64,000 nt of DNA from Escherichia coli (GTDB lineage Bacteria; Pseudomonadota; Gammaproteobacteria; Enterobacterales; Enterobacteriaceae): the NCBI RefSeq assembly GCF_003019035.1, contig NZ_CP027448.1, one strand, 5' to 3'. A program made the translations under genes and the position numbers. The notes below the pieces were generated by a model that saw only the letters and a list, made by a program, of their open reading frames with translations, was not told the DNA's origin and searched no databases. Position 1 is the first letter of the stretch; each line of letters starts with the position of its first letter. Below, piece after piece: positions 822-48,263 of this stretch.

Positions 822-851
822 AGCAATAATGTGAATATTCACATTATTGCT
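822..851. promoter_or_regulatory. 30-bp perfect palindrome spanning the copB stop codon; candidate CopB operator / PrepA control element
   Basis: AGCAATAATGTGAAT|ATTCACATTATTGCT read directly; lies just upstream (in repA direction) of the repA leader, where CopB-repressed PrepA sits in R1. Confidence 0.35.
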
Positions 852-1096
852 CTGCGTTTCAGCTCTGATTCAATCAGTTTTTCAAGCATCTGCGCCTGGG
901 TAATACCTTCCTCATCTGCCAGTTCACTCAGCCTGTCTTTTAAACGGGCCTGGATAACCGCATGAAAAGCCTTATGAGTGTTGCTTCTGCGAGCCAGAGA
1001 AGCCCTTTGCCTCTCTCTGGCCGGAACAGGGTTACCTTTCCGGTATGCACGCTTGTTACCTGATGAGGAAGTCACTGCATTTTCTGTCTGCGACAT
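839..1096 (-). CDS. copB: CopB/RepA2 transcriptional repressor of repA
   Basis: 85-aa [14 protein letters not shown]...[19 protein letters not shown]; same start and C-terminal helix pattern as R100 RepA2/CopB; position immediately upstream of CopA/tap/repA1. Confidence 0.85.
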
Positions 1097-1335
1097 CTCG
1101 CCTCCTCAATACTTAAACAGGGATCATTTCGCAGAGGATACTACAGTTTTTTGAAATCAGCGACTTGAGAATTGTGACAAAGATCTGTGTTGGCGCACAA
1201 ATCAACGGGGATTACTGTCGTTTAATGTGATTTAAACTGTGAAATAGTATGGTTTTCAGTTATGGAAACGCCGGGAGCGGAGAAAACTTGCTTTTTCCCG
1301 TTTCCGGGGTTGGACAACTGAGCAACGCGAAGGCG

Positions 1336-1926
1336 TCAGCTACGATGTTCAGGTGGCTGCTGATCAGCCCCTGTTGTATTCAGCCATTCGCCGGTCATCT
1401 GCAGCAGTTTTCTGGCATCGTGGCTTCTGAGCAACGGTATACCAGCCTGCCTCATAACCTCTTCCAGAAGAATATCCCGGCGTCTGCGTTCCGGTCGTAA
1501 ATGGCTGGCATCATCCAGCTCTACTGCTGCAACAATACTGAACGAACGCCGCTCAACGATAACCACATCAACATGCCACTGGGACACCATCCTGAATAAC
1601 TGCCACCACTGACGTGATCGTGGCCGGATATTCCCGTTCAGCTGGACGATATCAGCGCCCCGTACCTGCGGGCACAGATACCACCGCTTCATATCCACAA
1701 TCCTGAACAACCCTTTCATGAAACTGACCTCTCTTTCTGTCAGCAACGTTTTCTGACGCTGCCAGTATTCACCGCTGACCAGTATTCGCTCAGCTTCACT
1801 GGGGCGTATGCCTGCTGCATGTAACCGTATCAGTGCGGGAGGACAGTTTTTACTCCTCCGGAATATTATCCGGACAGACAAAACAGCTATAATAATAACG
1901 ACTACAATGAAAATAATTAAATTCAT
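1336..1926 (-). CDS. Membrane-anchored restriction-endonuclease-fold protein (recalled as DUF2726-like)
   Basis: ATG at 1926 (MNLIIFIVVVIIIAVLSV = N-terminal TM), core HVDVVIVERRSFSIVAAVELDDASH...RRRDILLEEVMRQAGIPLLR resembles the D-x(n)-E-x-D/H nuclease-fold pattern. ORF-track start at 1995 is less likely. Confidence 0.55.
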   Translation of the reverse strand: MNLIIFIVVVIIIAVLSVRIIFRRSKNCPPALIRLHAAGIRPSEAERILVSGEYWQRQKTLLTEREVSFMKGLFRIVDMKRWYLCPQVRGADIVQLNGNIRPRSRQWWQLFRMVSQWHVDVVIVERRSFSIVAAVELDDASHLRPERRRRDILLEEVMRQAGIPLLRSHDARKLLQMTGEWLNTTGADQQPPEHRS

Positions 1927-2077
1927 TATTATGTCCTTAATTACATATGAGTCCAGATGAACGAATGTAGTTTTCACCCGAAGTAAGACTCGCAATATTT
2001 ATCCCATGAATTACCTGAACGTTATCAGAAATACGACAAACCAGATCCGCAACAGATAATTCTGTTGTGATAAGGGG

Positions 2078-2704
2078 TCACCGCCTCGTTAACCAGACAA
2101 TTTTATCAGCCTGGATTTTAATTACCCCACGACGAACCAACTCACTACGTATACTAACAGCCCGTTCTTTATGCCATTCTCCTCGCATATGCGATTTTAA
2201 ATAATTATTAAACCCCTCCACTGACACCGGTAAATTCCGCACATCACTTCCGGATGCCTGCTGCATTCTGTTAGCCCACCGGATAATAACATCCCCCTCA
2301 GGGACAATCAGGTGAGATACCGGCAAATGACTCTCAGCGTGCTCTGGCGCAATACGTTCGCAACGAAAACCCCGTTTTTGCAGAGTATGAATTATTCCAT
2401 CATAGCCTTTATCGTTTGAAATAATATGCCAGGTGTTGTTTCCGGCACTGCAGCACGTCATCCTGCCGAGCTCCATAACAAGGTGAAAGTCAACATTATT
2501 CTTCGAAATGTTATCTATCTGTCTGATACTCACTCTGATATTATCTGGCCAGGTATCAGCAGGTAAGACCACTGTTTGCTGAAGAGGACCAGCAAATAAA
2601 ATCAAATCGGTATAATCAGCAAGCGATATATTTCTCAGATTGCAACAGTTTTCATAATCAATGAGCGCAATGCGTAATGCTTCATTTCTCATCATGTTTT
2701 CCAT
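2078..2704 (-). CDS. Hypothetical protein with NYN/LabA-like N-terminus
   Basis: ATG at 2704 preceded by GGTGA; RIALIDYENCCNL resembles the (A/V)xFIDxEN motif of NYN/LabA-type domains. ORF-track start at 2740 is a TTG. Confidence 0.45.
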   Translation of the reverse strand: MENMMRNEALRIALIDYENCCNLRNISLADYTDLILFAGPLQQTVVLPADTWPDNIRVSIRQIDNISKNNVDFHLVMELGRMTCCSAGNNTWHIISNDKGYDGIIHTLQKRGFRCERIAPEHAESHLPVSHLIVPEGDVIIRWANRMQQASGSDVRNLPVSVEGFNNYLKSHMRGEWHKERAVSIRSELVRRGVIKIQADKIVWLTRR

Positions 2705-3115
2705 TATATATTCACCATAATAAAACAGAATAAACTGCAAACCCGACGCAGTGTATCTACCGGTCTGGTTAAGTTTTCATTATCGGAATATAAAATATTG
2801 TCTGCCGCCAGTCAGGCAGCCCGGAGTTCCGTGAGTGATATAACAAATCAATAAACCACCACTTAATTCATAAACATCCTTGTGTCACTATAAGCCGGTC
2901 GGTTATCCGGTGCGCCATGAGTAATCCGTTCTGAAGAACGGAAATACAGAGTGCCAGGTTGTCTCTCATAATACAAAAGCAAATTTCATGCATCATTCAG
3001 CCTCCTTACCCTGGAGAAACGGAGGCTGTTTTTTTATATTCCTGAAACACCATCCGCAATGATTCATCGCTGGTGAGTTTTATGAATTTAATCTCAAATA
3101 TGCCAGCCTCTTTAT

Positions 3116-5802: not shown

Positions 5803-8800
5803 TCAGTCTCCGCCCAGGGTTTTCTCTTTCTGCAGGTCACGAACCATATCCCGCTCCATCTGCTGCAGACGCTCCTGCAGCAGATTTTCCCGGGCAACCT
5901 CCCGGACCGCTTCCCGCTCCCGTTGTGATTCACGCAGCACACTATCCGGCAGCGCGGCTTCCCGTTCAGTTATGGCAGCCCGGTCACGCTCCTGCCCGGC
6001 AATTTCCCTGACAGCCAGCTCTGTTTTGCCATCCGGCAGGTCAGGTTTGTTCTCTGCCATTTTACGGACAATTTCATCTGCGCGGCGTTCCGTTTCACGG
6101 CGGATGGCCTCTTCAGCCTGCCTCTGTGCCAGCACCTCTGCCGTGACCGGTTCGCCATTTCCGGCTCCCGGCTGGACGCTGTTGTCCGGGATATCCCCCC
6201 ACACGCGGCCACCGGTTATGGCACCGGGATTCCACGGACGGCCTTCACCGGCGATTCTTACCACCACACCACTGTCAGGATTATCACGGGCAATCCGGAC
6301 ACCATCCTGCATATTATCAGCCAGCAGGCTTTCTCCGTTACGGCTGCCCTGCAGGGCCACAAACTGTGCATCTTCACTGCCCTTCACCCGGCCTTCACCA
6401 CTGAATCCCCGCAGCCCGTTTCCGTCATCCGTGGTCAGCGGGTTCAGCCAGATACCGGCAGACTTGCCGTTACGGTCAAAAGCCGGCAGTGCCACATACG
6501 GCTGTGGGTATTTGCGCCCCGGAGCAATAAACCGTGCAGGACTGTCTCCCCCGGCCAGCCCCGCCTGACGAAGAACGGCTCGGCCTGCCGCCACGTCCCG
6601 CAGCTCCCGCGCCGTACTGAACAGCCGCTCTGCATTCATGACCTCCCGGTCCGATTTCGGCTCAAACACATCGTGGGCAGTTCCTTTCTGTTCGGCATTG
6701 TTAATGGCATCCGTCCAGCCCTGACGGTTATCGGTGTACACCTGCACATGCTGCTTCATACGCGACAGGGCCACGTAGGCTGACTCAAAGCCGGCCATCT
6801 GTTTCCGGCTGCCTTCCGTGCCTTCAAGCGCAATGGCAAAGGTTTCACTTGCCCCCTGCGCACCGTGGGCGGTGATGGCATAGGCCAGGTCAATATGTTG
6901 CTCTGCCCGCTCCTGACCGGGGCGAATCACCCGGGTCTGCTGTCCGCCCGACAGCGTGACACTGTCACCGGAAACCGCTGTCACCGTCCAGACGCTGTTG
7001 GCCACATAGCCGCGCTCCCGGTCACTCTTCGTGAAGCGCATCCGGTCACCGGTCCCCACCCGGATGGTGTCCGGGGTGTACAGTGTGACACCTTCAGCCA
7101 CCGCCTCCCGGGGCGAAATCAGCCGCGTGTTACCTTCCGCATCCTGCAGGGTTATCAGCCCGTCACCCTTACTGATACCGGCAATCCGGTGATACACATT
7201 ATCCACCAGGACAAGTGCGTCCCGATGTGTCTCCCAGGTGGAGAGACGACGCAACTCCCCGTCGCGTATATTCGCTGTGTTCAGGACAGGCACCATGACC
7301 TGCTCTTTCCCCAGCTCACCGGCCTTTTCCCGTGCATCATGAATCATGCTGTTCAGTACGCGCCGGTCCTCATTCAGGTGCGTGACAATAAGCGTCTGCT
7401 CCCGTGCTTCCGGCGTCCTGCCGGTATAGTCGCGGACAATGGCTTCATACAGTGTCATGGGGACATCCGGAAAAGCCTCGCCGTTCTGCATCGCCTTCTG
7501 CTGCGCTTCTGCCAGTTTCGCTTCCTGGCTGTGACTGAACTCCGTCACAGAGTGCTCCGGTACCCATGCGCCCTCCTGACGTGGCACCTGAGACGGTTTC
7601 ACACTCTCAAGCCCGGACAATGCCCTTTCCACATCCCGGTTAATCAGGCTGTATACCGCCTCCCGCAGTTCCGGCGTCTGACGCACAATCTCCTTCATGA
7701 TGGCCACATCGGCAGCGCTGCGCGTCTGCTGGAGACGGAAAGGCTGACCGGGCGCGATGGCCTGCAGCTGGTCCGTGTCACCGCTGGCCACTGCACGACC
7801 ACCACCGGCCGCAATCAGGGCATATGCCCGTGCCATGTCGGTATTGCCCACCATTGAGCTCTCATCGAGCAGGAACAGCGTGTTGCTGAAATCCGGCGTT
7901 TCTCCGCTGCGCAGCTGCAGCTGCGTGCCATGCAGAAAGGACGCCAGTGTCTGTGCATCCACGCCGGCGCTGCGCATCTCCCCGACCGCACGGTGCGTGG
8001 GCCCCAGCCCCACGACACGGGGACGCTCACTCTCCGGCAGCATGTTCACGGCTGACATCACCGCCCGGAACTGTGTGGTCTTACCCACACCGGCATAGCC
8101 CTGCACCACCGTGAAACGGTCGGACGTTTCCAGTATCATGCGGGTGGCGGCACGCTGTCCTGATGTCAGACTCTCCATGACTCCGCCAGGGACTCTCTCC
8201 ATCAGCGGCGTGACCGCCTCCTTACCTTCGAGAATATGGCGAAGAATGCTCTTTTCTGCCTCATACGACGCACGGGAAACCAGCAGGCCTGTGCCATAGC
8301 CTTTTGCCACATCCACATACAGTAAATCACCGCGTTTTATCTGCGCATTGATTTCCCCTCCCAGTTCAGTAAAACTGGTTCCTTCTGCAGCAAACGACTT
8401 CGCCTCTGTCAGCAGGTCCACCATGCTGAAGGCCAGGTTTTTACTTTCCAGCACAGGAAGGGCCAGATGAATGGCCTGCTGTGCCGGCGTGTGAAGCCCG
8501 GCTTTCTGCAGACTGATAGCGGTTTCCAGCAATGTCTCACCGGCACGCGCCTTTATCTGCTCAGAAACCACCGTAAAGGAGGGATGGCGGGCAAGGTTTT
8601 CCGCCGTACGGGTTTCATCCAGCGAGGAATACAGCCGGACATCACGACCGCTGCGGGCCAGACCGTTCAGGGTGGCGTTGTCCATTGCCATCTGTGTGAC
8701 GGAGGCAAAAACCTTCGCACTGTCGCTGACGGAATGCCCGGGCGTTTCCACCCAGCCGTTCTCCAGCTTCAGTGCCGTGAACGGTGAATCGCTCACAGGC

Positions 8801-11073
8801 AGGGAGGCCGGTTCAGCCCGCCCCGGCACAACAACCGTCATCGAATCTTCACTGACGGATGCCACCTGCAGGCGGTCACCGCCGGAGACGCGGAGTCCGG
8901 GAATTTTCCCTGTCACCCTCAGACGCTCGCCGTCTGCCACCGGCATTTTTTCCGGCCGGAACAGCGACCAGCTGCTGTCCAGGGAGGAAATACGCACCAC
9001 CTGCGTTTCGCCCTGCGCATCCCGCAGGGTCAGGCTGTGACTCTGCGCCGTCACCCGATCGATAACATAGAGGTCATGACTGCGTGTCTCCGGGTTCCAC
9101 TGCTCCATCACCATCCCCGGACGGTACATATCCCGCAGATAACGGCTCCGGCTGTCCAGCCAGACCGGTGACAGAGCGGTCATGGTCACCTCCGGGTGTC
9201 CGAGCACGCCCTGTGTTTTCAGCTCACTGCGAACGGCCTGTGTCAGTATGGCCTGTTCCCGTACCCCGCTGACCTGTGCCACGCTCTCTTCTCCGGCTTT
9301 CACGCTGGCCGCAAAATCTCCGGCCAGCCGGGCATAGCGGACATTACGGTCCGGTTCACTGATGATGGTGGCCGGTCGCTGTTCTCCCCCCTGCCAGCGA
9401 TATGTGTTCACCCCGGCATCTTTCATGGCCATCAGTGCACTGCCTGTACCGGTTCGCTGCCCGCTGTCGGTTATCAGGACCTGTACGTTATGACGTGCGG
9501 CACCGTCCAGCAGGGTTAACGTCTCTTTCAGGGAGAGTTTTTCGCCCTGGTCAACGATAACAGTACTGCCCAGCGTGAAGGCCATGCCTTCCAGCAGCTG
9601 ACGACGTCCGGTTATCAGCTCACCGGACAGCCGTTCATCCTGCTTCAGGTTCATCTGCGAGCGACGGTCAGCAGCGATAATCTGCACTTCCCGCCCCTGC
9701 TCCCGGGCCATCATGACCAGTTCAGCCACCCGCTCACGCTGCCCGGCTGCACCGCCCTGCCCGGACACAATGGCCAGCGACGGACGGTCCTGTGCCAGAA
9801 CACTGACGGCATCGCTGTAGCCGGCCGTCCGGGGGACACTTTTCTCCGGATGTACGGTCACCCGGTTCTGTTTCATGATATCGCGACTGAGTGCCCGGAC
9901 TGACAGTTCATCGAGCACATGAATCCCGGACGTGAACAGCCCCTTCTCACGGTCAAGGGGGATGAGTTGCTCACGGCTGATGGCCTCATCGATACCGGCG
10001 CGTGCCCGTTCAATCACACCATTTTCCGGCGGCAGTATACCGACCGTTCTGGCCAGCACGTCCGTGTACGTAAACTGCACTTTTCGTTCACTTAATCCGG
10101 CAATCGCCTGTGTCACCGCCTGCTGCACATCCGGCCCCTCCTGTGAAACAGCCCCGGGCGCCTGCGTGCGGGTCTCCGCACGCTGATCCGCCGCGTCACG
10201 ATATGCCCGGATGTCGAACCCGGTTTCCTTCAGCGTCTGCATCCATTCAGCCATTCTGACTTCAGGATCGACGTGCTGTTTGGATTTTCGCGTATCCAGT
10301 GCCGCCACATCCCGGGATTTCAGCGAGGCGTCCTCCCCGACGGCCTCCCGGATAGTCTGCGAGCGTCCAGAAAAGGCCTCCACCGGTATGCCCAGCATTT
10401 CCCACATACCGTGCTGACCCACCACTTCGGTTTCATAGCCCAGCGCCTCAACCTGCTCTTTCAGTTTTTCCCGGTAGAGCCTGCCAAAGGCAATCTGATT
10501 AGCGTACACATTCTCAATGAACCCCGTTTTCCCCACTTTGTCACTGCTCAGTGTCTTCCATTCGCCGTTATGCTGCGTGACATTAGCCACCACCGCATGC
10601 GTGTGTAACTGTGGTTCCTGATCGCGACTGGTGTCGTGGTTAAACAGTGCCATCACCAGATTACCGGTCAGCACCGTTTCTGACTGTCCGTCCGTCATCA
10701 CCCGTGTGGAGGCCAGCGCCTCCACCTGACGGACAGCAAAATCCACGGCCTGGTTATGTGCTTCAATAAGACGTTTGTCCCCCCCGAGCATGGCCATCAT
10801 GGAGACACTTTTGGGAGCGGAAAAGGTCAGGTCGTAGCCGGGACGATGCCTGTTACGGCCATCCTGCATGCGGCTTAAATCCGCCCCGTCTGGCAACCTG
10901 CCCTCCAGAAGGCGGGTAAAGACATCCTTATCGACACTGCCCTGCAGCCCCAGTTGTTCAGCCCCCTGGCCGGCCCAGCGTTCTCCCATGCTGCCCAGCA
11001 CATAGTAATTATCCTTGTCGGTATAATAGTTCCCGGCACTTCCGGCCGATCTGACCTGCGCAATACTCATCAT
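5803..11073 (-). CDS. traI: TraI relaxase/helicase, 1756 aa
   Basis: From the MM at 11073: MMSIAQVRSAGSAGNYYTDKDNYYVLGSMGERWAG..., HTHAVVANV (3-His relaxase motif), Walker A GYAGVGKT; length equals F TraI. Confidence 0.97.
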   Translation of the reverse strand: MMSIAQVRSAGSAGNYYTDKDNYYVLGSMGERWAGQGAEQLGLQGSVDKDVFTRLLEGRLPDGADLSRMQDGRNRHRPGYDLTFSAPKSVSMMAMLGGDKRLIEAHNQAVDFAVRQVEALASTRVMTDGQSETVLTGNLVMALFNHDTSRDQEPQLHTHAVVANVTQHNGEWKTLSSDKVGKTGFIENVYANQIAFGRLYREKLKEQVEALGYETEVVGQHGMWEMLGIPVEAFSGRSQTIREAVGEDASLKSRDVAALDTRKSKQHVDPEVRMAEWMQTLKETGFDIRAYRDAADQRAETRTQAPGAVSQEGPDVQQAVTQAIAGLSERKVQFTYTDVLARTVGILPPENGVIERARAGIDEAISREQLIPLDREKGLFTSGIHVLDELSVRALSRDIMKQNRVTVHPEKSVPRTAGYSDAVSVLAQDRPSLAIVSGQGGAAGQRERVAELVMMAREQGREVQIIAADRRSQMNLKQDERLSGELITGRRQLLEGMAFTLGSTVIVDQGEKLSLKETLTLLDGAARHNVQVLITDSGQRTGTGSALMAMKDAGVNTYRWQGGEQRPATIISEPDRNVRYARLAGDFAASVKAGEESVAQVSGVREQAILTQAVRSELKTQGVLGHPEVTMTALSPVWLDSRSRYLRDMYRPGMVMEQWNPETRSHDLYVIDRVTAQSHSLTLRDAQGETQVVRISSLDSSWSLFRPEKMPVADGERLRVTGKIPGLRVSGGDRLQVASVSEDSMTVVVPGRAEPASLPVSDSPFTALKLENGWVETPGHSVSDSAKVFASVTQMAMDNATLNGLARSGRDVRLYSSLDETRTAENLARHPSFTVVSEQIKARAGETLLETAISLQKAGLHTPAQQAIHLALPVLESKNLAFSMVDLLTEAKSFAAEGTSFTELGGEINAQIKRGDLLYVDVAKGYGTGLLVSRASYEAEKSILRHILEGKEAVTPLMERVPGGVMESLTSGQRAATRMILETSDRFTVVQGYAGVGKTTQFRAVMSAVNMLPESERPRVVGLGPTHRAVGEMRSAGVDAQTLASFLHGTQLQLRSGETPDFSNTLFLLDESSMVGNTDMARAYALIAAGGGRAVASGDTDQLQAIAPGQPFRLQQTRSAADVAIMKEIVRQTPELREAVYSLINRDVERALSGLESVKPSQVPRQEGAWVPEHSVTEFSHSQEAKLAEAQQKAMQNGEAFPDVPMTLYEAIVRDYTGRTPEAREQTLIVTHLNEDRRVLNSMIHDAREKAGELGKEQVMVPVLNTANIRDGELRRLSTWETHRDALVLVDNVYHRIAGISKGDGLITLQDAEGNTRLISPREAVAEGVTLYTPDTIRVGTGDRMRFTKSDRERGYVANSVWTVTAVSGDSVTLSGGQQTRVIRPGQERAEQHIDLAYAITAHGAQGASETFAIALEGTEGSRKQMAGFESAYVALSRMKQHVQVYTDNRQGWTDAINNAEQKGTAHDVFEPKSDREVMNAERLFSTARELRDVAAGRAVLRQAGLAGGDSPARFIAPGRKYPQPYVALPAFDRNGKSAGIWLNPLTTDDGNGLRGFSGEGRVKGSEDAQFVALQGSRNGESLLADNMQDGVRIARDNPDSGVVVRIAGEGRPWNPGAITGGRVWGDIPDNSVQPGAGNGEPVTAEVLAQRQAEEAIRRETERRADEIVRKMAENKPDLPDGKTELAVREIAGQERDRAAITEREAALPDSVLRESQREREAVREVARENLLQERLQQMERDMVRDLQKEKTLGGD

Positions 11074-11087
11074 AAACGTATATCCCT

Positions 11088-11116
11088 TTGACATATCCCG
11101 GCATCAATCCCACAAT
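11088..11116 (+). promoter_or_regulatory. Candidate vapBC promoter with ATATCC/GGATAT operator-like repeats
   Basis: TTGACA (11088..11093), 17 nt, CACAAT (11111..11116); ATATCC occurs three times and GGATAT once between 11081 and 11140, upstream of AGGAGG-ATG of vapB. Confidence 0.3.
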
Positions 11117-11788: not shown

Positions 11789-13942
11789 TCAGAAATCATC
11801 TCCCGGCTCAACATCCTCCCCGCGCTCCCGGTGCACATTAATGTTCACCTCTTCACGACGCTGCATCTGCTGCTGGATGTCCGGATGATTTTCCTGTTGC
11901 CATGCCTCATAAGCGGCCATATCCACCACTTCACCGGATTCACTGATCCCGGGTGGCAGTTGCTGTTCCATCTCTTCTTCCGGTTTCATTTTCAGCTCCT
12001 GCTCGATCCCCCCTACCGGAACATTCACACCTGAATCTGACTTCTTATCGTTGATGGCAGGAGACACCGGCTGTTGCGGCTGTTCAGCCTGAGTCACGTC
12101 TTCTCCGGAAACAACCTCCGGGACATCCGGTTCGAAGAGGCTGGCCATCTGACGACCTTCTGCTTCCCTTGCGGCAAGTACGGCACTCAGACGGTTCTCC
12201 ATTTCCGGGTTGATGTCACGCGGAATAAACTCCGGAGCGACCTTCGGTCGTGTCTGATATTTCAGAGAGAGTTTTACTGCCGGATACGGTCCGGGCAGGG
12301 TGACATAACAGGTCAGATCCGGCAGAGACTGAATGTCGGAATAACTGACCAGCGTCTGGCGCTCCATATCCTTACCGGTCGATACCCCGTCACGTACCGG
12401 ATCAGCACCGTAGGAATACTGCTCGCTGGCTTTCAGGTGCTCTTTCTCACCAATTTCACCGGCAGCGAACTCTGCAATCTTATGGCTGGGAGAACGGAAA
12501 AAGGCACGGGTGTTCATGACGTCAAACAGCGAGGCAGCCGCTTTCTCACCGTAGATATCTTCCAGCTGGGCATAGGACTGGATACCAAACACATAACAGC
12601 CACCGAACTTACGGGCTTCCGGCAGGATCTCCACCAGGTCCGGCAGTTTGTGTAACGTGGGTAACTCATCACAGAAAAACCACACACGACGGTTACGGTT
12701 TTCTCCCATTGCCAGCAGACCACGAATGGCAATGGACAGCCACATGGAGATCACCGGCTTCAGGGAGGCATGGGTGTCGGCATTCGACGAAATAAACAGC
12801 CAGCCGTTTTTCTGATCTTCCCGGACACCACGCATCCAGTCACGGATGGTAAAAGACTCACCGTTATGCTCAATCCCCTGCAGGTAACGGATGGCTTTCA
12901 CGTAGTTGGTCAGCACAGCACGGATGGAAATCGCCGTTTTCTCAATTTTCTCTTCCACCAGGTTGGCCGCCGGTGAATTACGCAGGAAGGTACGCAGTTT
13001 TTCGATTTTGATGGAAAGCAGTGTGTCCACCAGTTTGCTGTAGCTGCGGTTGGGGTCATTACGCATCAGGTACGCCGCTTCCGCAAAAATGGTACGTCCT
13101 GACCCCTGCCAGAACGGGTCCTCTTTTGTGCCCATCGGGATCAGCGTGTTCGCGGTATTATCAAAATCCGGCTGTGTCAGGCACTCCTTCCACAAATCCC
13201 AGGCGGCACAGCGGGCATCCAGCGGATTCAGGATTTTATCGATGGAGGGATCATAGTAACTTTTAACAAATTCCCCTGAACGGTCATAAATCACCACCAT
13301 ATCTCCACGCTGACGGGCGTAGTTGGCCAGACGACGGATAACTTCCGACTTACCGGCCCCGACCGTGCCGTGCAGACAGAAGTTCTGGATTTCGGAATCC
13401 CGGATAATCGGCAGGTCGCCAATCCGTATATCGGAGTCCTTGCCGTCTTTTTTCAGCATCCGGGCAACGTCTTTCGGATTGTCTGTCAGCTGACGACCAC
13501 CTGTGACTTCATTTTCGCTCTGTTGTTTACCCTGACGCCCCAGAATCCAGGAGACAACAAAGAAGGTAATCAGGCAAATAACCAGTGCCACAACTGTGGC
13601 CAGAACGAATGCGGACCATAGCTGCTCTCCGCACCAGATCATATATTTATCATGCAGTACCTGAGCAGCATTCATCCGGAAGGTTTTGCCGTAATACTGG
13701 ATCTCATATACCGGCTGGGACTTGATTAAATCCCGCATGCCTTCCAGCGTGGTACACCACCAGTAAATACAGCCGTTCACAAACGTCTGCCAGCTTATTT
13801 TTACCCATAAAACCAGACCAACGAGTATCCAGAAAAAAATAAACAGGCAGTAAAGCATGATATTGGCGATCTGGCTGAACATGCGGATACGCATGGACGC
13901 AATCTGACCGCCCTGGGTCATATCCTTTGCGTTAAAACTCAT
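11789..13942 (-). CDS. traD: TraD type IV coupling protein, 717 aa
   Basis: [31 protein letters not shown]..., Walker [10 protein letters not shown]-terminal ...[10 protein letters not shown] as in F/R100 TraD. Confidence 0.97.
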
Positions 13943-14193
13943 GATGATATTCCGAAGAAAAAAGTCAGTCGGACTGATTATTAATGATGAAAAGATTAAT
14001 AACCGTTAAATTCCGGCTTCGCCGGCAACACTTCACGGTCGCACAAAGAATTTGCACAACCGCTCAGTGTTTTCATATTTATTTCGGAAACGCCGGGGAG
14101 AAATAAAATTTATTTTATTTCTTTCCGGGGTTGGACAACGAGCAAAGCGAGGCGTCAGTCAGGAGGCCGGTCAGACCAGCCTCCGGAAGATAA

Positions 14194-14925
14194 TCAGAGA
14201 ATATTTGCGATTGATTTGGCCAGCTGGTCTTCGAGAACAGGCTTCGCCTCTTCAAATTTCAGGTTAACCTTGTTCGCACTGGAGACCACACGGGTCTGAT
14301 ATTTATGCTGGTTACCTGTTTCAGTACTGGTCTGAATTTTCGCACCTGAAGTGCCCTGACGCAGGGCGGCAACATTATCTGTTGTCACCGTTGTCTTAGT
14401 ACGCTCTGCAATCTGCACATCCGTGATCATGGTATAGTTCACATCTTCCACCATCGCATCTGCAGCCATACCCACCAGACCAGCAGCAAGGCCCACACCG
14501 AGTGTGGCACCGGCAGAATTGGAATTATATCCGGTAATACCGGCACCTAACGCTGCACCAACAGCTGCGCCTTCATAACCACGGTTCAGCCATCCCTGAG
14601 ACTCCCGCAGATCCATCTTATCGGCCTTCAGCACATTCGCCTGAATCCAGTAGTAGGCTTTATCCGGAGAAGTCACCACCTGATACCCTTTTGCTTTCAC
14701 AGCATCAGCAATTTTGCCCTGCAGCCCACTCATGTCTTTATCAGACGTGTTTTTGATCTGCAGAAATACCGTGCGTTCGCTGGCGGGTTCAAGCCAGATG
14801 GTCTCACTCATCTGGGTCTTCACCTCAAGGTTACGCTTCTTGATTGCTGTGCTCATCGCACCACACCCTGAAAGGGCCAGAGTGGAACTGACCAGTGCAA
14901 CCATCATCAATTTTTTTGTTTTCAT
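14194..14925 (-). CDS. traT: TraT surface-exclusion / serum-resistance lipoprotein
   Basis: 243 aa, lipobox [21 protein letters not shown], sequence recognised as TraT. Confidence 0.96.
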
Positions 14926-15448: not shown

Positions 15449-18270
15449 AATGGCCCCTTCAGTCGTTCCTTTTTACCATCAATCATTTTTTTCACAGCCT
15501 CTCCTGATGGCTCAGGTATTATCTTTTGACTTTCTCGCTCTTCATTATATTTATTATTCTGAGATAATGCTTCTGTTTTATGGTGATTCTGCAGTTCAGA
15601 ATACTGTCCTCTTACAATATTTTCCTCGCCATGTATGCTGTTCTGAGTATCACCTATATTCCCTTTATATTCTGTGACCATATTATCAACCTGATGTTTT
15701 ACATCATTACGGATATTACTGTCCTGTGTTCTTTGATCAATAATGGCCTGATGCCCCTGATGGTCAGCAATAATATTCTGGCTGCCACCACCCGAAGGTA
15801 CGCTCTCCATTCCTTTACCAATATCGCCACGGGATTCACGCCAGGCATTATCAACACCAGGTTGTACCTGTTCTTGCACAAAAGACCATGCCATCGCCCG
15901 ACGGCGTTCTGCAATCTCCGGTGAACTGGTGTTTGTCAGAATAGCTTCTGCATACTGCGGCGCGTGTTTCATCACATACTGTGCAAACTGTTGCGACAGG
16001 TCTTCACTCATCTGCCCACTCATGCTTTCAGTACGGGATGCCATTTCAGCATATTCATGGCTGCGGGTCATATTCGTCGTGTACTGGTCGTAACTCTGTT
16101 TCGCTGAGTTCAGGGCTGCAGACAACTGGTCCACGCGGGAATCGGCATTATTGTCAGTATGGCTTCCGGATTCACTGACTTTGCGACTGGTAAAGTAATC
16201 GCTGGCCTCTTTAAAGTCCTTACTGGCTCTAGCGTCAATATCATGGCGAGCATCATGGGAAGCCCTGCTGCCACTACTGGCTTCATGTGAGTCCAGATCA
16301 CTACCGTCAATACTGGCTCGCCCACCAACCTTAGCGCCAACATCAACACGCACACCAAAAAGGCTGGGCTTTGCATCTAATCCGGCATGAGCATCACCAT
16401 ACAATCCAGCTGATGCAGTCGTACTTCTCGATGCCAGTTCTCTTGTCGCCTGCTCATTACTGATATTATGCGCCTTCGCATAGCTTTCCACTGCACTGCG
16501 CATACGGCTGGCCATCATGGAGTCCTGAGCACTCATCGTGCTGTCAGCACCACCGGTGACAGAATCACTGCTCCCCCGGTTAGAACCAAACTGACTGAGC
16601 GTGTTCCAGGCACTGGCAATACTGCTGCTGAACCCATGCAGGGCACTTTCTGCTCTGTTCGATGCTTCCCGGGCCATTTCCTGTTGTGCCGCCGCAATCT
16701 GACGCGTTGCATTGATGCCGACCGGTAACCGGGACATCGCTCCGCTTGCATCCATCACCATATTACCATCACGGGTCTGTGTGGCGGTTGCGCCACTGCC
16801 GGTCTGGTACATCATCTGACCAAACGACGTGGTGCTGTTGGTGCTCCAGCTGAAGCCGTTCACGTTCTCCGTCTGCATGTTGCCGTAGGAGTAATTACCG
16901 TCAACCACACTGCCTGCTGCACTGGCGGTCGGGCTGATAGCAGAGGAAGCGAAATGGCTGTACACACTGGAAAATCCTGCCCCGAGCCCCCTGACCATCA
17001 TCCAGGATAATGGCGGGATCATCATGGAAAGATACCCGGCAGTGGAAGCCAGATCGGAGTATTTCAGCTGTATCTGTGAAATTTCCGAGAGCACCACCGG
17101 TGCACCATTCTGCTTCGCATAAAATGTCATGGCGCTGTTCAGAATGGCGTACAACATTGGCCATGACTGCAACCACATCAGGGCAAACACATAGCCTTTC
17201 AGGACGGACAGCGTCAGTTTGTTGAAGACAGCCGCCAGTACCAGGAGCGGGAAAATACCGATGGCGATCCCCGTCAGGATGGTCTGCGTCATGGGCAGTG
17301 TCCGCATCGCCACATGACCGATGGAGACATGTGCCAGACGTTGCTTCTCCATCGATGATGTGGTGGCCAGATTCACCAGGCTGGCCGAATCACCATTACG
17401 TGCGGCATAACTGGTGATCCCCTCCTTCAGCGCATTGATGGTGACATTCTGGCGGATGATCTGGCTGGCTGATTTACTTGAGCCATAGAAGTAACTGTAA
17501 CTGTCGCCAATCAGCGTACTGAACAACAGGTTCGGATCAGGGCGTCCACCAAATAGCTGCTGGGCATAATAATGCCATGTTTTTCCGCCACTCTGTGTGT
17601 CCAGATTCAGCTTGTCTTTCAGCGAAACCGACGCGTCCTTACAGGTCACGAAATTATTATTGCTGTCATAAACGCCCCGCAGCGGACTGGGGCGGGAAAA
17701 AATCAGCGTGTAAGGATCAGCGGAGGCCATCAGTTCCTCCAGCGTGTATTTGTGGTTCAGGTAAATATCCCCCATCACGCAGTTCTGCACATAATCCTGG
17801 AAAAGATTGGCGATTTCCGGATTACGGGACAAAAAGTCGGTGCTTTTTGATACCAGTTCTGCGCCAAACAGCATCCCCGTTTTGCTGTAGGTGACACTGT
17901 CCGGTTGCGTGAAGATCATCTCGTAACTGGCCACCATTGCATGCCCGATACGGGTCGTCAGTGAAAGTGGCATCGCCAGTCCGACCGGCACATTATCCAC
18001 CCGGTGAATTTTGACCAGGTCACTGTTATCAATAATCTGCACCGATGTGCGGACATTAACCAGCAGGCTGATAAGCACAAACACGGCCACCCAGCCCAGC
18101 AAATCCATCACGTTGTGCCGCTGTACCCACATTACGGCCACCGCTAGAACAGACAATGTGAGCGCAATTTTTTCAATGGAATCCCACGTCCGGGTCCCCA
18201 TAAAGGCGGCAATGGCATTCAGGTTATTCCGCAACCACTCACCACCGGCAATCACATAAACTTCATTCAC
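15445..18270 (-). CDS. traG: TraG mating-pair stabilisation / pilus assembly protein
   Basis: 941 aa: MNEVYVIAGGEWLRNNLNAIAAFMGT... matches F TraG N-terminus; start overlaps traH stop. Confidence 0.95.
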   Translation of the reverse strand: MNEVYVIAGGEWLRNNLNAIAAFMGTRTWDSIEKIALTLSVLAVAVMWVQRHNVMDLLGWVAVFVLISLLVNVRTSVQIIDNSDLVKIHRVDNVPVGLAMPLSLTTRIGHAMVASYEMIFTQPDSVTYSKTGMLFGAELVSKSTDFLSRNPEIANLFQDYVQNCVMGDIYLNHKYTLEELMASADPYTLIFSRPSPLRGVYDSNNNFVTCKDASVSLKDKLNLDTQSGGKTWHYYAQQLFGGRPDPNLLFSTLIGDSYSYFYGSSKSASQIIRQNVTINALKEGITSYAARNGDSASLVNLATTSSMEKQRLAHVSIGHVAMRTLPMTQTILTGIAIGIFPLLVLAAVFNKLTLSVLKGYVFALMWLQSWPMLYAILNSAMTFYAKQNGAPVVLSEISQIQLKYSDLASTAGYLSMMIPPLSWMMVRGLGAGFSSVYSHFASSAISPTASAAGSVVDGNYSYGNMQTENVNGFSWSTNSTTSFGQMMYQTGSGATATQTRDGNMVMDASGAMSRLPVGINATRQIAAAQQEMAREASNRAESALHGFSSSIASAWNTLSQFGSNRGSSDSVTGGADSTMSAQDSMMASRMRSAVESYAKAHNISNEQATRELASRSTTASAGLYGDAHAGLDAKPSLFGVRVDVGAKVGGRASIDGSDLDSHEASSGSRASHDARHDIDARASKDFKEASDYFTSRKVSESGSHTDNNADSRVDQLSAALNSAKQSYDQYTTNMTRSHEYAEMASRTESMSGQMSEDLSQQFAQYVMKHAPQYAEAILTNTSSPEIAERRRAMAWSFVQEQVQPGVDNAWRESRGDIGKGMESVPSGGGSQNIIADHQGHQAIIDQRTQDSNIRNDVKHQVDNMVTEYKGNIGDTQNSIHGEENIVRGQYSELQNHHKTEALSQNNKYNEERESQKIIPEPSGEAVKKMIDGKKERLKGPL

Positions 18271-35784: not shown

Positions 35785-36471
35785 TTATTTAACACCATAA
35801 AATTCACGAATTATACTTAATAGCGAATCTATTTCTCCTTTATATATACATGACACTCTGAATAAATCAAAGTGTTCAAAAAACTCTTTTATTTTCCGTT
35901 TAACTGGTTTAATTCGATCCTCAGATGCTCTGTCTGTAATACCCAATTCTCTGGCAATTGTTGCGTGACCAACACCCAGCATATAAAAAGAGAAAACAAC
36001 CAATGTTCCTGGAGAAAGATCATTCCATATCGTTAATTGACCAGAAGTATTTGTATTACTTACACTCTGATTTAACGCAAAAAATGGATAATCAGGAAAC
36101 GGATTAATTTGCCATAAAACAACAGATTCGTCATTATAAAAAGAAACATTCTCCATCCTTATCTGATAGATTTCGCCATGAAAATTAAAACGACGACAAA
36201 ATGCAGAGCCATGTCCAAGAGCCTGGCATTCCAGTTCAAGTGATGAAAGAAAAATTTCAACCTGCAGACGTATATAACTCTCTCCGGATAAAGGTTTATC
36301 TTCTCTGGAAAAGAGTTCAATAAAAGCCCCATTGGCATAAAGGATTTTCCGGTTTTTGTTACGGACACAAACCGGAACGGGAGAATTTCTGTAGATATTC
36401 TGAACGTTAAGGATGTATTTATTTACAGATTGACTGTTTAGTGGCCTTTCTCTACGATCCAGCGCACACAT
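35785..36471 (-). CDS. traJ: TraJ transfer activator, R100-like allele
   Basis: ATG at 36471 with GGAGG SD: [40 protein letters not shown]...; C-terminal HTH ([18 protein letters not shown]). Confidence 0.85.
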
Positions 36472-36540
36472 AGGAACCTCCAGTAAGGATTCTATGGACA
36501 GTCGATGCAGGGAGTTACAGCTCCCTGCATCGGCGATTTT
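36464..36540 (+). ncRNA. finP: FinP antisense RNA against the traJ 5' UTR/start
   Basis: Plus strand opposite the traJ RBS has two hairpins: ATAGGAACC..GGATTCTAT over the anti-SD, and GTCGATGCAGGGAG-TTACAG-CTCCCTGCATCGGC followed by GATTTT (ends 36540). The 5' end is approximate. Confidence 0.7.
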
Positions 36541-36660
36541 CAGTTTCAATTTTTAACGTGGTATTAACCACATAATTAATATACTAATTATCTGACGTAT
36601 TGTCATCTTTTTGAATCATAAAAATTCTTATATTTGAACCAACTCAAACTTCATTTTCAT

Positions 36661-37044: not shown

Positions 37045-37458
37045 AAGACAGTACCTTTTAGATTCTGAAATAAGAGTTTTATTTCATCTACTCATAGTAT
37101 GGTCTGAAAAAATAAGAGCACCCCTAGCAGCGCCCCTAGGGGCATACTATAAAAAAACGCACGGCGCTGCTAGGGGCGGCCCTAATATATCCAAATGTTT
37201 TTCATGAAAATTGTCAAAACTGACCCTAACAAGGGTCGTCATAGGGTCGTTATAGGGTCGTCAACGACCCTATTTAATAATGTAAAATAAATTAAAATAC
37301 ATTATTTAGAACATAAACTAATGATTTAAAAAACAAATCAGCAAAAACTTGTTTTTGCGTGGGGTGTGGTGCTTTTGGTGGTGAGAATCACCAACCTGTT
37401 GAGCCTTTTTGTGGAGTTGGTTAAATTATTTACGGATAAAGTCACCAGAGGTGGAAAA
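37045..37458 (+). other. oriT: oriT; nic between 37367 and 37368 on the plus strand
   Basis: TTTGCGTGGGGTGT|GGTGCTTTTGGTGGTGAGAATCACCAACC is the F/R100 TraI recognition/nic sequence with the adjacent inverted repeat. A BglII site (37502..37507) lies ~140 bp away, as in F oriT maps. The plus strand is therefore the T-strand, entering the recipient 5'->3' towards higher coordinates. Confidence 0.9.
37121..37273. promoter_or_regulatory. TraM-binding (sbm-type) inverted repeats / traM promoter region
   Basis: CCCCTAGCAGCGC (37121..37133) and its exact complement GCGCTGCTAGGGG (37164..37176). GACCCT-AACA-AGGGTC and ATAGGGTCGT-CA-ACGACCCTAT plus repeated AGGGTCGT units lie in 37222..37273. Confidence 0.6.
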
Positions 37459-37968
37459 ATGAAAAAATGGATGTTAGCCATCTGCTTGATGTTTATAAAT
37501 GAGATCTGCCATGCCACTGATTGCTTTGATCTTGCAGGCTGGGATTACAAAATAGATCCTGATTTACTGAGAGCAATATCATGGAAAGAATCCCGTTACC
37601 GGGTTAATGCCATCGGTATTAATCCGGTAACGGGATATGGCAGCGGACTGATGCAGGTAGATTCCCAGCATTTTAACGAACTGGCCCGCTACGGAATTAA
37701 GCCAGAACATCTGACAACAGATCCCTGCATGAACATTTATACCGGTGCTTATTATCTGGCAATAGCATTTAAAAAATGGGGCGTCACCTGGGAGGCCGTT
37801 GGTGCATACAATGCAGGATTCAGGAAATCCGAACGCCAGAACCAGAGACGTCTTGCCTACGCATCAGAGGTTTACCGGATTTATACCGGGATAAAAAGCA
37901 GTAAAGGTATCCGGCTTCCGGCCACGAAGAAATCACTTCCGGAAATTAACAGCGTGCAGAACAATTAA
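37459..37968 (+). CDS. Lytic transglycosylase (gene X / orf169 / P19-like), 169 aa
   Basis: ATG at 37459: [19 protein letters not shown] signal, then ...[15 protein letters not shown]...GLMQVDSQH...AYNAG (SLT catalytic Glu-Ser and family motifs). Confidence 0.92.
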
Positions 37969-38226
37969 TCTTACAGATATTGTCAGATACCGGTTATGCC
38001 GCAAAAGCGGCATGGAAGGCCACACACAAAAATATCATATGAGTGACAATACTGACTGGCCGAAGCCCCGCGAAGAGGTAACCCATCTTATATATACCCG
38101 GTAACTGCGCAGCCTCCTGCCAGACCATTTTTCGCGGGCACAATATTTACAGACAACCGGAAATCCGGTCGATGAAATTGAGGTATATCAGACGACACAG
38201 CAATGCCGAAAAATGATAATATAAGT

Positions 38227-38254
38227 AAAGCCCCGAAAAATTTTTCGGGGCTTT
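38227..38254. terminator. Perfect 14+14 palindromic hairpin, likely bidirectional terminator
   Basis: AAAGCCCCGAAAAA|TTTTTCGGGGCTTT, 10 nt beyond the stop (38265) of the orf273-like frame. Confidence 0.55.
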
Positions 38255-38264
38255 ACTTATATTA

Positions 38265-39086
38265 TCATGACTTCCACTTTCTGAACTGTTCGGCAATCAC
38301 CCATAACGCCTTGTTGATTCTTATATCACCATCAATACCTGTAATGGCTCTTGTCCTGGTATTTTTCCCGGAGGCACTTCACCCCGATAATCCACCTTTT
38401 ATCATATTCTCCTGAACCCGCTGCCAGGTTGTCCAGAGATCGTTCTGTTTGTCTTCCCGACGACGGGGAGTAATTATCTGTTCAGGTGTCACTGGCGTTT
38501 TATTTTCATCTTCATACCTGACCATCAGTGCAGCTCTGCCAAATAAATGTTGCTCGTCACTGTTAAGATGAATTTCTTTCATCGCCTCCATATTATCAGT
38601 GACCTTATCAAAGACACCGAGCACTTCATACGCTCCCTCGATAACCTGCCCGACAATATCACCTTTATGTGGAACGCGGATTTCGCCAAAATTATTTCCG
38701 CACACCAGGCCATTTGTGCAGACAAAACGAAAAATTCCGGGGATCATCTGATAACTGGATGAACCATCATGTGAATTAAGCAGGATAATTTCAGGAGCTT
38801 CCTGTCCGTTAATATGCCCTTCCCTGCGAAGACGTAACATATGTTTACTGTATTCGCGACGTCCCAAATCACGAACCCGACTCTGACAGGCAAAGAATGG
38901 CTGGAAACCTTCATCACGTAACTTATTGATGATATTGATTGTTGGAATATACGTATAACGTTCACTCCGGGACTCATGTTTATCACCGGAAAATACCGAA
39001 GGCACGAACTGCATTAATTCATCATCCGTTAAAGGACGTTCACGGCGGATGGAATTATACCGACCAAAACGGGAAGCTAATCGCAT
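38265..39086 (-). pseudogene. orf273-like leading-region gene (recalled as DUF932 family) with an in-frame TGA after codon 235
   Basis: ATG 39086 (AGGAG SD), MRLASRFGRYNSIRRERPLTDDELMQFVPSVF...NMIKGGLSG, TGA at 38381..38379. The same frame then continues SASGKNTRTRAITGIDGDIRINKALWVIAEQFRKWKS* to 38265; total 273 codons. Confidence 0.75.
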
Positions 39087-39513: not shown

Positions 39514-40142
39514 TTTTCAGCCCCCATCATCTTTTGAGTTTCGGGAGCCGCGGTTTTGACGTTTTGCGGGGACCTGCCTTTTGTTCCCTCCGGTATTCAC
39601 CATCACCTTTTTGAGAACCTTCGCCGCAAGGGGCATCACTGCCACGGACGGAAACGACTGTCCGGGGGCAGACCGCAAAAGTTTTTGCCTGCTTTTGAGC
39701 AAAAAGTTTTGCGGGATGTACATTTCACCCCTGGACTGGCGGAGACGGTTGTGGCTGTATCAGCCCCCGGCGACAGGGGCTTAAACAGGTGAATGGCACC
39801 GGACAGAACAACGGGCAGGGACCCGCCGCAACGACGTGAAGCGCGGTTTGCGAAACGGCGTTGCCCCTTACATCCCGGCGGCCTTTTGCCGGGATGCCGG
39901 GAGCGCAGGCCACGGCGCGACAGAGGCGGCGCGACCGGAACGGTCGCTGCAAGCCCGGGGTTTTCACGCATCGGACCGTAGCGACAGCCCGAAACCGCGC
40001 CAGCGGGTTCGGCGGAGACTGGCAGGTGCGCCAGCAGCTGCCTGTCGGAGTCGGGCCTGACGACCGGATGCCGCCAAGCAGCCGGGAGCCGAAGGTGCGC
40101 CCGGCAGATAGGACAACACTGCAGTAGTCAGAATCAGAGCAG
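39514..40142. repeat. Frpo/ssi-like GC-rich repeat, copy 1 (candidate single-strand DNA promoter)
   Basis: 629 bp, near-identical to 44937..45565 and, over its distal two thirds, to 48264..48879. Multiple hairpins, e.g. CATCCCGGC-N8-GCCGGGATG at 39871..39896; abuts the RBS of the orf95-like gene. Confidence 0.8.
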
Positions 40143-44079: not shown

Positions 44080-45565
<1,486 letters not shown>

Positions 45566-47801: not shown

Positions 47802-48032
47802 TCAGTTAAAAGCGCGTTTCAGTTCGAGTGTGCGGAGCACCTGCCCGAAGGCCGTGTTTTTCATGGCGGGGATGTGTACACCACGCCCCCGGTGAAAACT
47901 CCGGGCTATGTGTCGCCCGAAGGCTTTCAGCACGGGGTCAATTTCCGGCGCGGGGATGTCTTCGCGTCTGAAACGGGGATGACGGCGGGGCTTTACAGCC
48001 GCTGCGGAAGGTGAAACAATACTTACCGTCAT
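47802..48032 (-). CDS. Hypothetical basic protein, 76 aa
   Basis: First ORF downstream of repeat 3; no recognisable motifs. Confidence 0.4.
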   Translation of the reverse strand: MTVSIVSPSAAAVKPRRHPRFRREDIPAPEIDPVLKAFGRHIARSFHRGRGVHIPAMKNTAFGQVLRTLELKRAFN

Positions 48033-48263
48033 AAATGAAACTCCTTATGACTGTTGAATGGAACCGCAGAAACTGCTCGAACAGTTTTTGCGGTGTGGAT
48101 TAAGCAGGTCCTCCCCGGCCTGCTTTTTTCATATCTGCGTCTGACGTTCTCCGGTGTTTTCCTCCTTCTGTTCCTGCGTTCTCATTACCTGCCAGCCGGA
48201 TGACTGACAGAACAAATAAATGCGTATTGCCGGAGCCTGAAATAAATCCTGATTTTTAAAGAA

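Follow-up and report, generated by a model that had tools for sequence, protein, structure and literature searches.

We identified two copies of one conserved non-coding element of about 75 bp in a 64,000-nucleotide (nt) stretch of Escherichia coli contig NZ_CP027448.1 (RefSeq assembly GCF_003019035.1; the whole stretch is called the window below), which belongs to an IncFII/F-like conjugative plasmid whose tra genes run along the minus strand. Both copies read on the plus strand, one near the replicon (copy 1, site A) and one between traT and traD (copy 2, site B). The hairpin of the element is under selection as a fold of the plus strand, antisense to the tra genes, and this favoured strand is the transferred strand (T-strand), the same strand that carries the nic site and the leading-region elements ssiD and ssiE. 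We read the element as a putative, conserved cis-acting folded signal of the T-strand, of the kind of single-strand initiation sites (ssi) and single-strand origins (sso), and rate this at somewhat below an even chance. That it would stand for an unrecognised class of T-strand signals in the late-transferred half of F-like plasmids, recruiting priming or other processing of single-stranded DNA (ssDNA), is a bolder proposal that we make with more hesitation.

Two copies of one conserved element

The window positions 1264-1339 and 14086-14158 hold two copies of one unit with the layout (G)GAAAC, a 16-19-bp hairpin, and then GGGGTTGGACAAC...GCG..AGGCGTCAG. Copy 1 runs from GGAAAC (1264-1269) to GTCAG (1335-1339), and copy 2 from 14086-14091 to 14154-14158. 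Their parts are as follows (ORF, open reading frame).

1264-1339, plus strand: copy 1 (site A), after the accessory genes that follow finO and 168 nt before the start of repA2/copB
1267-1311, plus strand: hairpin of copy 1, with AAC/GTT closing pairs, G1270 and G1308 unpaired, and stem 1271-1286 with 1292-1307
1308-1339, plus strand: box of copy 1, GGTTGGACAACTGAGCAACGCGAAGGCGTCAG, containing a small second hairpin, ACGC-GAAG-GCGT, at 1325-1336
1336-1338, minus strand: TGA stop of the DUF2726 ORF, provided by the terminal CTGAC of the unit
14086-14158, plus strand: copy 2 (site B) in the traT-traD spacer, 35 nt past the traT stop and 143 nt before the traD start at 13942
14089-14132, plus strand: hairpin of copy 2, with the AT-rich stem AGAAATAAAAT/ATTTTATTTCT extended by CCGGGG/TTCCGG including two G·T pairs
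14131-14158, plus strand: box of copy 2, TTGGACAACGAGCAAAGCGAGGCGTCAG

An earlier note on this DNA had described a hairpin-plus-box motif shared by these two places, and its similarity proved to be far above chance in a formal alignment: local alignment of the two 140-nt regions scored 73, compared with a mean of 15.9 (standard deviation (sd) 2.4, maximum 28; z = 24) in 2000 dinucleotide shuffles. The 18-mer TTTCCGGGGTTGGACAAC is found exactly at two plus-strand places and nowhere else in the window even with up to three mismatches (expected 0.07), and GGAAACGCCGGG is exact in both copies. A covariance model made from the relatives recovered two sites only in the 64 kb, with 100.9 bits for copy 1 and 81.2 bits for copy 2, while the next-best match on the plus strand reached 10.2 bits. 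The two look-alike stretches are thus real copies of one element. The same note had the copy 1 box meet the stop codon of a nuclease-fold ORF and copy 2 lie shortly past the traT stop, and both statements agree with our coordinates: the TGA is the complement of 1336-1338, within the last 5 nt of the unit, and the traT stop (14194-14196) is 35 nt from the unit end. What had been called a variable hairpin loop does vary in sequence, but is really a full stem of 16-19 bp whose pairing is kept in both copies.

Read along the plus strand, the unit consists of a T-rich tract, GAAAC, an unpaired G, the 16-19-bp stem with a loop of 4-6 nt, a second unpaired G, GTT (pairing back to AAC), GGACAAC, 7-8 variable bases and GCG(A/G)AGGCGTCAG; its conserved tail reads GGTTGGACAAC...GGCGTCAG, and the unit ends in GGCGTCAG. 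This last part can fold into the small second hairpin, with ACGC-GAAG-GCGT in copies of the E. coli type and GACGCC-N7-GGCGTC in those of the Klebsiella type. The sequence of the main stem is strongly type-dependent with its pairing kept, for example GGGAGCGGGGAAAAC, GGAATCGGGGGAAAC and GGAGACGGGGAAAAC, and GGGGAGAAATAAAAT or GGGAGGTGACAAAAT behind traT. In a 91-nt context, copy 1 folds as RNA at -38.6 kcal/mol on the plus and -30.2 kcal/mol on the minus strand and as DNA at -19.5 and -16.0 kcal/mol, respectively; copy 2 (~90-nt context) has -28.7 and -19.3 kcal/mol as RNA and -16.5 and -11.9 kcal/mol as DNA. A coding role was rejected, as reading frames are disrupted by indels between copy types. 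Within the window, no further copy or complementary partner was detected and shared 9-12-mers were at chance level; GGAAACGCCGAG at 18576 is unrelated and lies inside coding sequence. A separate GC-rich hairpin, GGAGGCCGGTCAGACCAGCCTCC, stands at 14162-14186 between the traT stop and copy 2, outside the repeated unit, and has a U-run on neither strand.

Copy 1 is 100% identical in the nearest relative, NZ_CP062205, and an 86-nt query matched at least 5000 PLSDB records, which answers the question of whether related plasmids carry the motif. The matches listed came from Escherichia, Klebsiella, Shigella, Salmonella, Enterobacter, Citrobacter, Yersinia and Serratia and were mostly conjugative MOBF/MPF_F plasmids. 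Across 5426 complete E. coli genomes, 6146 of 6198 places were on plasmids and 52 were chromosomal, with a median of two places per genome having any unit. A pattern scan of metagenome contigs and of plasmid and genome loci yielded 134 instances with 57 distinct sequences. As the scan pattern demanded exact matches to CCGGGGTTGGACAAC, GCG and AGGCGTCAG, the conservation of these blocks is partly by construction; the BLAST-derived copies (L004, L055 and L200) have only one or two changes in them. An earlier scan of genome contigs with a 15-mer pattern gave mostly chance matches in unrelated phyla, among which only L044, L055, L067 and L122 were genuine. One of these, the 8.2-kb contig146 of Streptomyces morookaense (NZ_JABBXF010000146.1, L067), carries the unit and flanks in 129 nt identical to a Klebsiella pneumoniae IncF copy (L003) and is most likely assembly contamination.

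The favoured fold is that of the transferred strand

Comparison of 50 distinct relatives showed that the stem covaries. Standard pairs occupy 96.7% of the 847 stem cells (single pairs in single sequences) on the plus strand, compared with 91.3±0.4% in shuffles, and both sides are changed in 34 cells, compared with 6.3±2.2; the covariation score is above 500 of 500 shuffles and above every slid register. Stem changes run through the series GC-GU-AU, which is workable on the plus strand only. There, 135 cells at 11 of the 17 pair positions are G·T and 4 are A·C (each in one sequence only), counts that are subject to ascertainment bias because the sample was retrieved by the box pattern. On the minus (gene-sense) strand, pairing falls to 81.2% and 15.9% of the stem cells turn A·C. 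All 43 distinct hairpins (43/43) fold better on the plus strand (means -28.3 versus -19.8 kcal/mol), with 77 wobble pairs on the plus and 2 on the minus strand. Because G·U pairs of the minus strand are almost never used, unlike what is expected of a hairpin in minus-strand RNA, the fold under selection is that of the plus strand. Composition or mutation bias fails to explain this asymmetry, since the plus strand of the window is C-rich rather than G-rich (GC skew -0.05 to -0.15); G-to-A changes in the 5' arm were fixed exactly where the partner is T. In a DNA-fold scan of the window in 90-nt steps, the plus strand was favoured by 6.1 kcal/mol at site B (~3 sd from the mean) and by 3.5 kcal/mol at site A (~2 sd), with tails of the distribution reaching ±8.8. 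The sliding scan alone proves nothing for the unit, and the strand argument is carried by the comparative evidence.

The TraI nic motif GGGTGTGGTGCTTT is exact on the plus strand at 37362-37375. For the F origin of transfer (oriT), we take the nicked strand to be the one with this nic sequence and to depart with its 5' end leading, the leading region coming first; by this polarity the plus strand, which the tra genes use as their template, is the T-strand. Published sequences of F ssiD/Frpo and ssiE (PMC11541004 supplement) map to the plus strand of the leading region as well.

39521-39870, 44944-45293 and 48275-48607, plus strand: ssiD/Frpo copies with 95.7%, 94.9% and 78% identity, respectively
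37963-38151, plus strand: ssiE copy with 97% identity

The Frpo-driven reporter in that supplement is written on the complement of ssiD (PMC11541004), so the ssiD strand is the template strand and hence the T-strand. The ssiD and ssiE elements top the window scan both for DNA-fold stability and for preference of plus over minus, and thus act as a positive control whose strand preference agrees with that of the unit. The leading region further contains a perfect 56-bp palindrome (38213-38268; 28-nt arms, no spacer) just past oriT and ssiE.

The unit shares its layout, in which a conserved tail is exposed beside a stable hairpin of free sequence, with signals that are read on ssDNA, such as ssi/Frpo, sso and the sites of primases or HUH enzymes. 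In the recipient, the late-entering T-strand would be single-stranded and coated by SSB, whereas the hairpin would stay duplex and may present the box to a host or plasmid factor. This factor would start or organise complementary-strand synthesis or otherwise process the T-strand, from one site just ahead of the entry of the tra region and another inside it. How and when the complementary strand of F is primed, and where its synthesis starts, is called unresolved in reviews and a live-cell study (PMC9849209; PMC7690428). Among the matches listed, the unit is confined to F-like (MOBF/MPF_F) backbones, which supports a T-strand signal. In the window, and likewise in the two metagenome contigs with both sites (L134/L203 and L174/L191), the copies are direct repeats, as would suit a strand-specific signal. 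We also count in its favour that pCD1 of Yersinia pestis, with an IncFII-type replicon and no tra region, yielded no copy even with filters off. Since pCD1 lacks the unit, a part of the IncFII replicon is not supported as its identity.

We infer that the single strand is read as DNA rather than RNA, and with it that the signal has a reader. The T-strand is single-stranded during conjugation in every context, which favours the DNA reading, and a plus-strand RNA is unlikely because the left flank differs by context (5' end of the PLD-family gene, copB promoter region, hok region or traD leader) and no plus-strand promoter was called at either site in a promoter scan. Such an RNA would be a FinP-like, two-stem small RNA (sRNA) or antisense RNA that overlaps the 3' end of the upstream gene, and the plus-strand wobble pattern would suit it as well as DNA. 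Rfam matches in the window comprise CopA (624-713, plus), FinP (36465-36540, plus), the traJ 5' untranslated region (36466-36573, minus), sok, AS-traG (17466-17551, plus) and AS-pc01 (48027-48128, plus). The anti-tra RNAs FinP and AS-traG hence lie on the plus strand, and further transcripts of the anti-tra strand are expected in this plasmid given the matches to AS-traG and AS-pc01, two antisense RNAs first described on plasmid pHK01. Moreover, the FinP spacer UGGACAGU resembles the box UUGGACAAC, and in several contexts AGGAUUUU comes directly after the second hairpin of Klebsiella-type copies. Set against this, the unit itself has no match in Rfam 15 at the gathering score (E ≤ 10 gives only noise of ≤19 bits), the window copies are without a U-tail, and RNA immunoprecipitation sequencing of FinO in Salmonella with pSLT, a plasmid of the unit-bearing type, had FinP and RepX as sole major ligands (PMC8136791). 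Together with the shifting left flank, this leaves an antisense RNA improbable. The pSLT antisense RNA IesR-1 belongs to a different locus.

The shared strand also brings the nic region itself into play. A pseudo-oriT, at which the TraI relaxase would recognise the T-strand a second time or pause, may descend from the nic-proximal inverted repeat and the G-rich nic region or mimic them. Such a site would lie on the strand of nic, and the oriT repeat GCAAAAACTTGTTTTTGC followed by GTGGGGTGT|GG (window 37341-37375) loosely resembles the apical stem GGAAAACTTGCTTTTTCC followed by GGGGTTGG. The best plus-strand match of the covariance model outside the copies falls at 37341-37358, but is not significant (10.2 bits, E = 0.28). 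Furthermore, in K. quasipneumoniae pKAM645_3 (L251) there is no co-variation between the apical stem and the oriT repeat of that plasmid, and copies of the traT type differ in apical stem and in spacing to the G-run. We regard a pseudo-oriT as very improbable.

Several observations weigh against a T-strand signal. A blastn-short comparison with F ssiD, ssiE and ColIb Frpo1-3 returned only 7-10-mers (E ≥ 0.07), and the 16-19-bp stem is too short for a Frpo-type -35/-10 promoter and holds no hexamer pair. DnaG uses a CTG triplet on sites of the G4 type, and such a triplet is found in the E. coli site-A type only. The 1991 shotgun screen of F and R100 for ssi (Nomura et al.) is not known to have reported a site here. 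The unit is almost unchanged in non-conjugative derivatives, for example pO157-type plasmids. That the favoured strand matches the T-strand had a prior of 50%, and the constant place right after a stop codon suits an mRNA element at least equally well.

Gene context and alternative readings

We sorted the instances into 49 flank contexts, for which flanking ORFs were called and RefSeq annotation was used. The unit occupies two fixed sites in one orientation, namely the end of the transfer region before repA2, hok or a PLD-family gene, and the place behind traT. Its upstream neighbour is always a co-oriented (minus-strand) gene from one of at least 16 unrelated families, including DUF2726, TraT, a DsbA-family protein, several hypothetical proteins and FinO; for at least six of these families, the stop codon is the TGA within the terminal CTGAC of the unit. 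Downstream, a PLD-family nuclease gene starts 26-42 nt away in 13 of 14 contexts (265 nt in the outlier); other neighbours are repA2/copB at 171 nt, traD at about 146 nt, hok-side ORFs and an extra gene before traD. Locus L044, for instance, has the order finO, unit, PLD, repA2, repA. Homology between contexts ends within a few bases of both unit edges, where unrelated DNA abuts. The proposal of the earlier note that the motif is a discrete, non-coding module shared by the 3' flanks of unrelated minus-strand genes and conserved in IncF relatives is upheld by these contexts.

Around the two copies, the window has the following genes.

839-1096, minus strand: repA2/copB, as annotated in the nearest PLSDB relatives
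1336-1926 or 1336-1995, minus strand: DUF2726 ORF of 196 or 219 amino acids (Pfam DUF2726, E = 2.9e-21)
5803-11094, minus strand: traI, long ORF
11789-13942, minus strand: traD, long ORF
14194-14925, minus strand: traT, long ORF

The genes traS and traG are long ORFs on the minus strand as well, and the nearest PLSDB relatives annotate repA, tap, repA2/copB, a DUF2726 protein, an NYN-domain protein and FinO. The variable stretch between finO and the replicon consists almost entirely of predicted nucleases and RNases (NYN, PIN, the restriction-endonuclease-like DUF2726 and PLD-family Nuc), as seen at window positions 2078-2740 and 1336-1995 and in loci L003, L010, L005 and L006. At site B, many relatives have an extra hypothetical gene of ~260 amino acids between the unit and traD (L007 1627-2406; L191), and one relative has an extra 86-amino-acid gene between traT and the unit (L008 2538-2798); these extra genes mark site B as an insertion-tolerant boundary, too. 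Damaged units also occur: the hairpin is cleanly deleted with the box kept in one metagenome contig (L243 4377-4410), IS26 cuts within the hairpin in another locus (L009 2505-2551), and L205 has another truncation.

This placement is the strength of the main rival, which is an RNA element in the sense of the tra genes, either a weak terminator or attenuator or a hairpin that stabilises 3' ends. It would close constitutive units (traS-traT; finO with the accessory genes) and shield traD/traI, hok and the repA2-repA1 copy control from read-through, with some transcription passing. A unit that always follows a co-oriented gene, across so many unrelated families and with the stop codon inside it in several, fits such a role, and on the minus strand, too, the hairpin has a stable fold (-13 to -31 kcal/mol), with a conserved GUUUC(U) after it. 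A 1987 paper on F traS/traT has 'terminator activities' in its title. In RNA sequencing of an IncFIIK plasmid (PMC6286996), reads per kilobase per million (RPKM) fell from 282 to 8 after traT and from 35 to 13 between a hypothetical gene and nucC; in related IncFIIK plasmids, the unit lies between the latter two genes. These drops are indirect evidence, which would count if that plasmid carries the unit at these positions, and for pBIC1a if it has the unit behind traT.

The wobble pattern runs the other way, however. The 135 G·T cells of the plus strand are A·C mismatches in a tra-sense RNA, in which G·U is almost never used. There is no U-tract, the tail being GUUUC(C/U) followed by A-rich sequence, and a terminator scan (at least 5 T in 8 nt) called neither site on either strand. 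The start of the PLD-family gene 26-42 nt after the unit leaves no room for a promoter, so that read-through is required, and the 32-kb RfaH-dependent PY transcript must cross site B for traD/traI (PMC13596475). The conserved 30-nt box upstream of the hairpin would be left unexplained. We therefore consider a tra-sense element unlikely, though the foremost of the rivals, and the suggestion of the earlier note that the unit is a shared terminator or RNA-stability hairpin on the coding strand runs counter to the reversed wobble pattern, the missing U-tract and the required read-through.

The sharp edges of the unit bear on a further explanation, a functionless recombination hotspot or module junction, that is, a palindrome breakpoint or a scar left by some former mobile or site-specific system, which would be carried along whenever accessory genes are exchanged. 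Non-homologous DNA abuts on each side in many combinations, and unrelated ORFs end on the TGA of the unit; both features suggest that recombination took place there repeatedly. Most relatives have ~1.1 kb with a Hok/Gef (srnB-type) module and an unannotated ORF between repA2/copB and the unit. This module (L001 2600-3824) is missing at window positions 1097-1263 and in the two closest relatives, and the break is the left edge of the unit. Two loci, L055 (a metagenome-assembled genome of Buttiauxella) and L200, have two copies 2.5 kb apart that bracket a gene block. A scar would be expected to decay, yet the stem evolves compensatorily and strand-specifically, and among the BLAST-derived relatives the box has hardly changed across E. 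coli, Klebsiella and Buttiauxella (the metagenome set is unfit for this comparison, having been retrieved by the box pattern). Target-site duplications and long terminal repeats are lacking, with a terminal inverted match of only 5 bp (ACGCC/GGCGT). The one or two copies per plasmid, the low chromosomal share (52 of 6198 E. coli places) and the lack of hybrid contexts between sites A and B likewise speak against a mobile or recombining unit, and the crossover of L055 relative to L005 lies beside the unit and inside the PLD-family gene, outside the unit itself. The modular part of the recombinogenic idea in the earlier note thus agrees with the unrelated DNA at both edges in the 49 contexts, whereas a version without function, which we hold to be improbable, is at odds with the compensatory evolution of the stem.

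Among other identities, a Tus/Ter site was rejected, as no Ter-core match was found near either copy. DnaA boxes, IHF sites, terminal repeats of the Tn3 family (GGGGT...), Xer/dif sites and miniature inverted-repeat transposable elements with target duplications were judged by eye and were too weak or incomplete.

Comparison with known systems

The element is new in that it has no annotation and no Rfam family and its sequence is not mentioned in the searchable literature, where the box sequence was in no paper and the topics traT/traD and IncF terminators, sRNAs and ssi came without a description of it. In E. coli, Klebsiella, Shigella and Salmonella, resistance and virulence genes are carried mainly by IncF plasmids, thousands of which have this 75-bp element; it is more conserved than the surrounding genes. 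On either reading, it is a landmark at the fixed edge of the variable accessory region between finO and the replicon. As a tra-sense attenuator, it would mark the point beyond which copy-number control, hok and traD/traI are shielded from constitutive transcription. As a T-strand signal, it would bear on how and where F-type complementary-strand synthesis starts in the recipient and would offer a concrete, mutable site.

Of the known T-strand signals, ssi/Frpo elements (F ssiD and ssiE; ColIb-P9 Frpo1-3) resemble the unit as strand-specific T-strand folds of the same plasmid family with the plus strand favoured; their proposed role is to let the synthesis of RNA or primers begin on ssDNA as it enters (PMC7690428). 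Frpo is, however, ~330 nt long, lies in the leading region and has -35/-10 hexamers in its stem, whereas the unit is 75 nt long, late-transferred, without promoter hexamers and dissimilar in sequence to both Frpo and ssiE. The F-type oriT nic region (an inverted repeat with GGGGTGT|GG) shares with the unit the strand and a hairpin of A-run, CTTG and T-run followed by a G-run, but the unit lacks the nic consensus, the similarity is not significant and there is no co-variation with oriT.

Intrinsic terminators and the stabilising repetitive extragenic palindromic (REP) sequences likewise place a hairpin, stable on both strands as in the unit, right after co-oriented stop codons and between differently expressed segments. 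The unit differs from them in its missing U-tract, its wobbles that fit the antisense strand and its long conserved box, and from REP sequences and their mosaic elements (BIME) also in being plasmid-specific with one or two copies rather than a dispersed high-copy chromosomal family. The attC sites of integrons are found at the 3' end of many unrelated genes, sometimes over the stop, and are imperfect, variable palindromes with a strand-specific fold, all of which they share with the unit, and GTTGGAC on the plus strand fits the attC core GTTRRRY (R'). An attC identity was nevertheless rejected: the partner reads GGAAAC/AGAAAC and not RYYYAAC, with pairing only via AAC/GTT. No integron integrase is annotated in the neighbourhoods examined (nucleases, FinO, TraX, RepA), and, in contrast to attC, the box is conserved in sequence and the unit keeps to two fixed sites per plasmid, with at most two copies per examined locus.

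The single-strand origins of rolling-circle plasmids have RSB and CS-6 as signature blocks, which are not evident in the unit, though no search aimed at them was made. As in the unit, ssoA and ssoU are orientation-dependent and combine a hairpin of variable sequence with short conserved blocks; they act only on the displaced single strand, are 150-300 nt long and belong to another plasmid class and host range. A review considers ssi functionally comparable to sso (PMC7690428).

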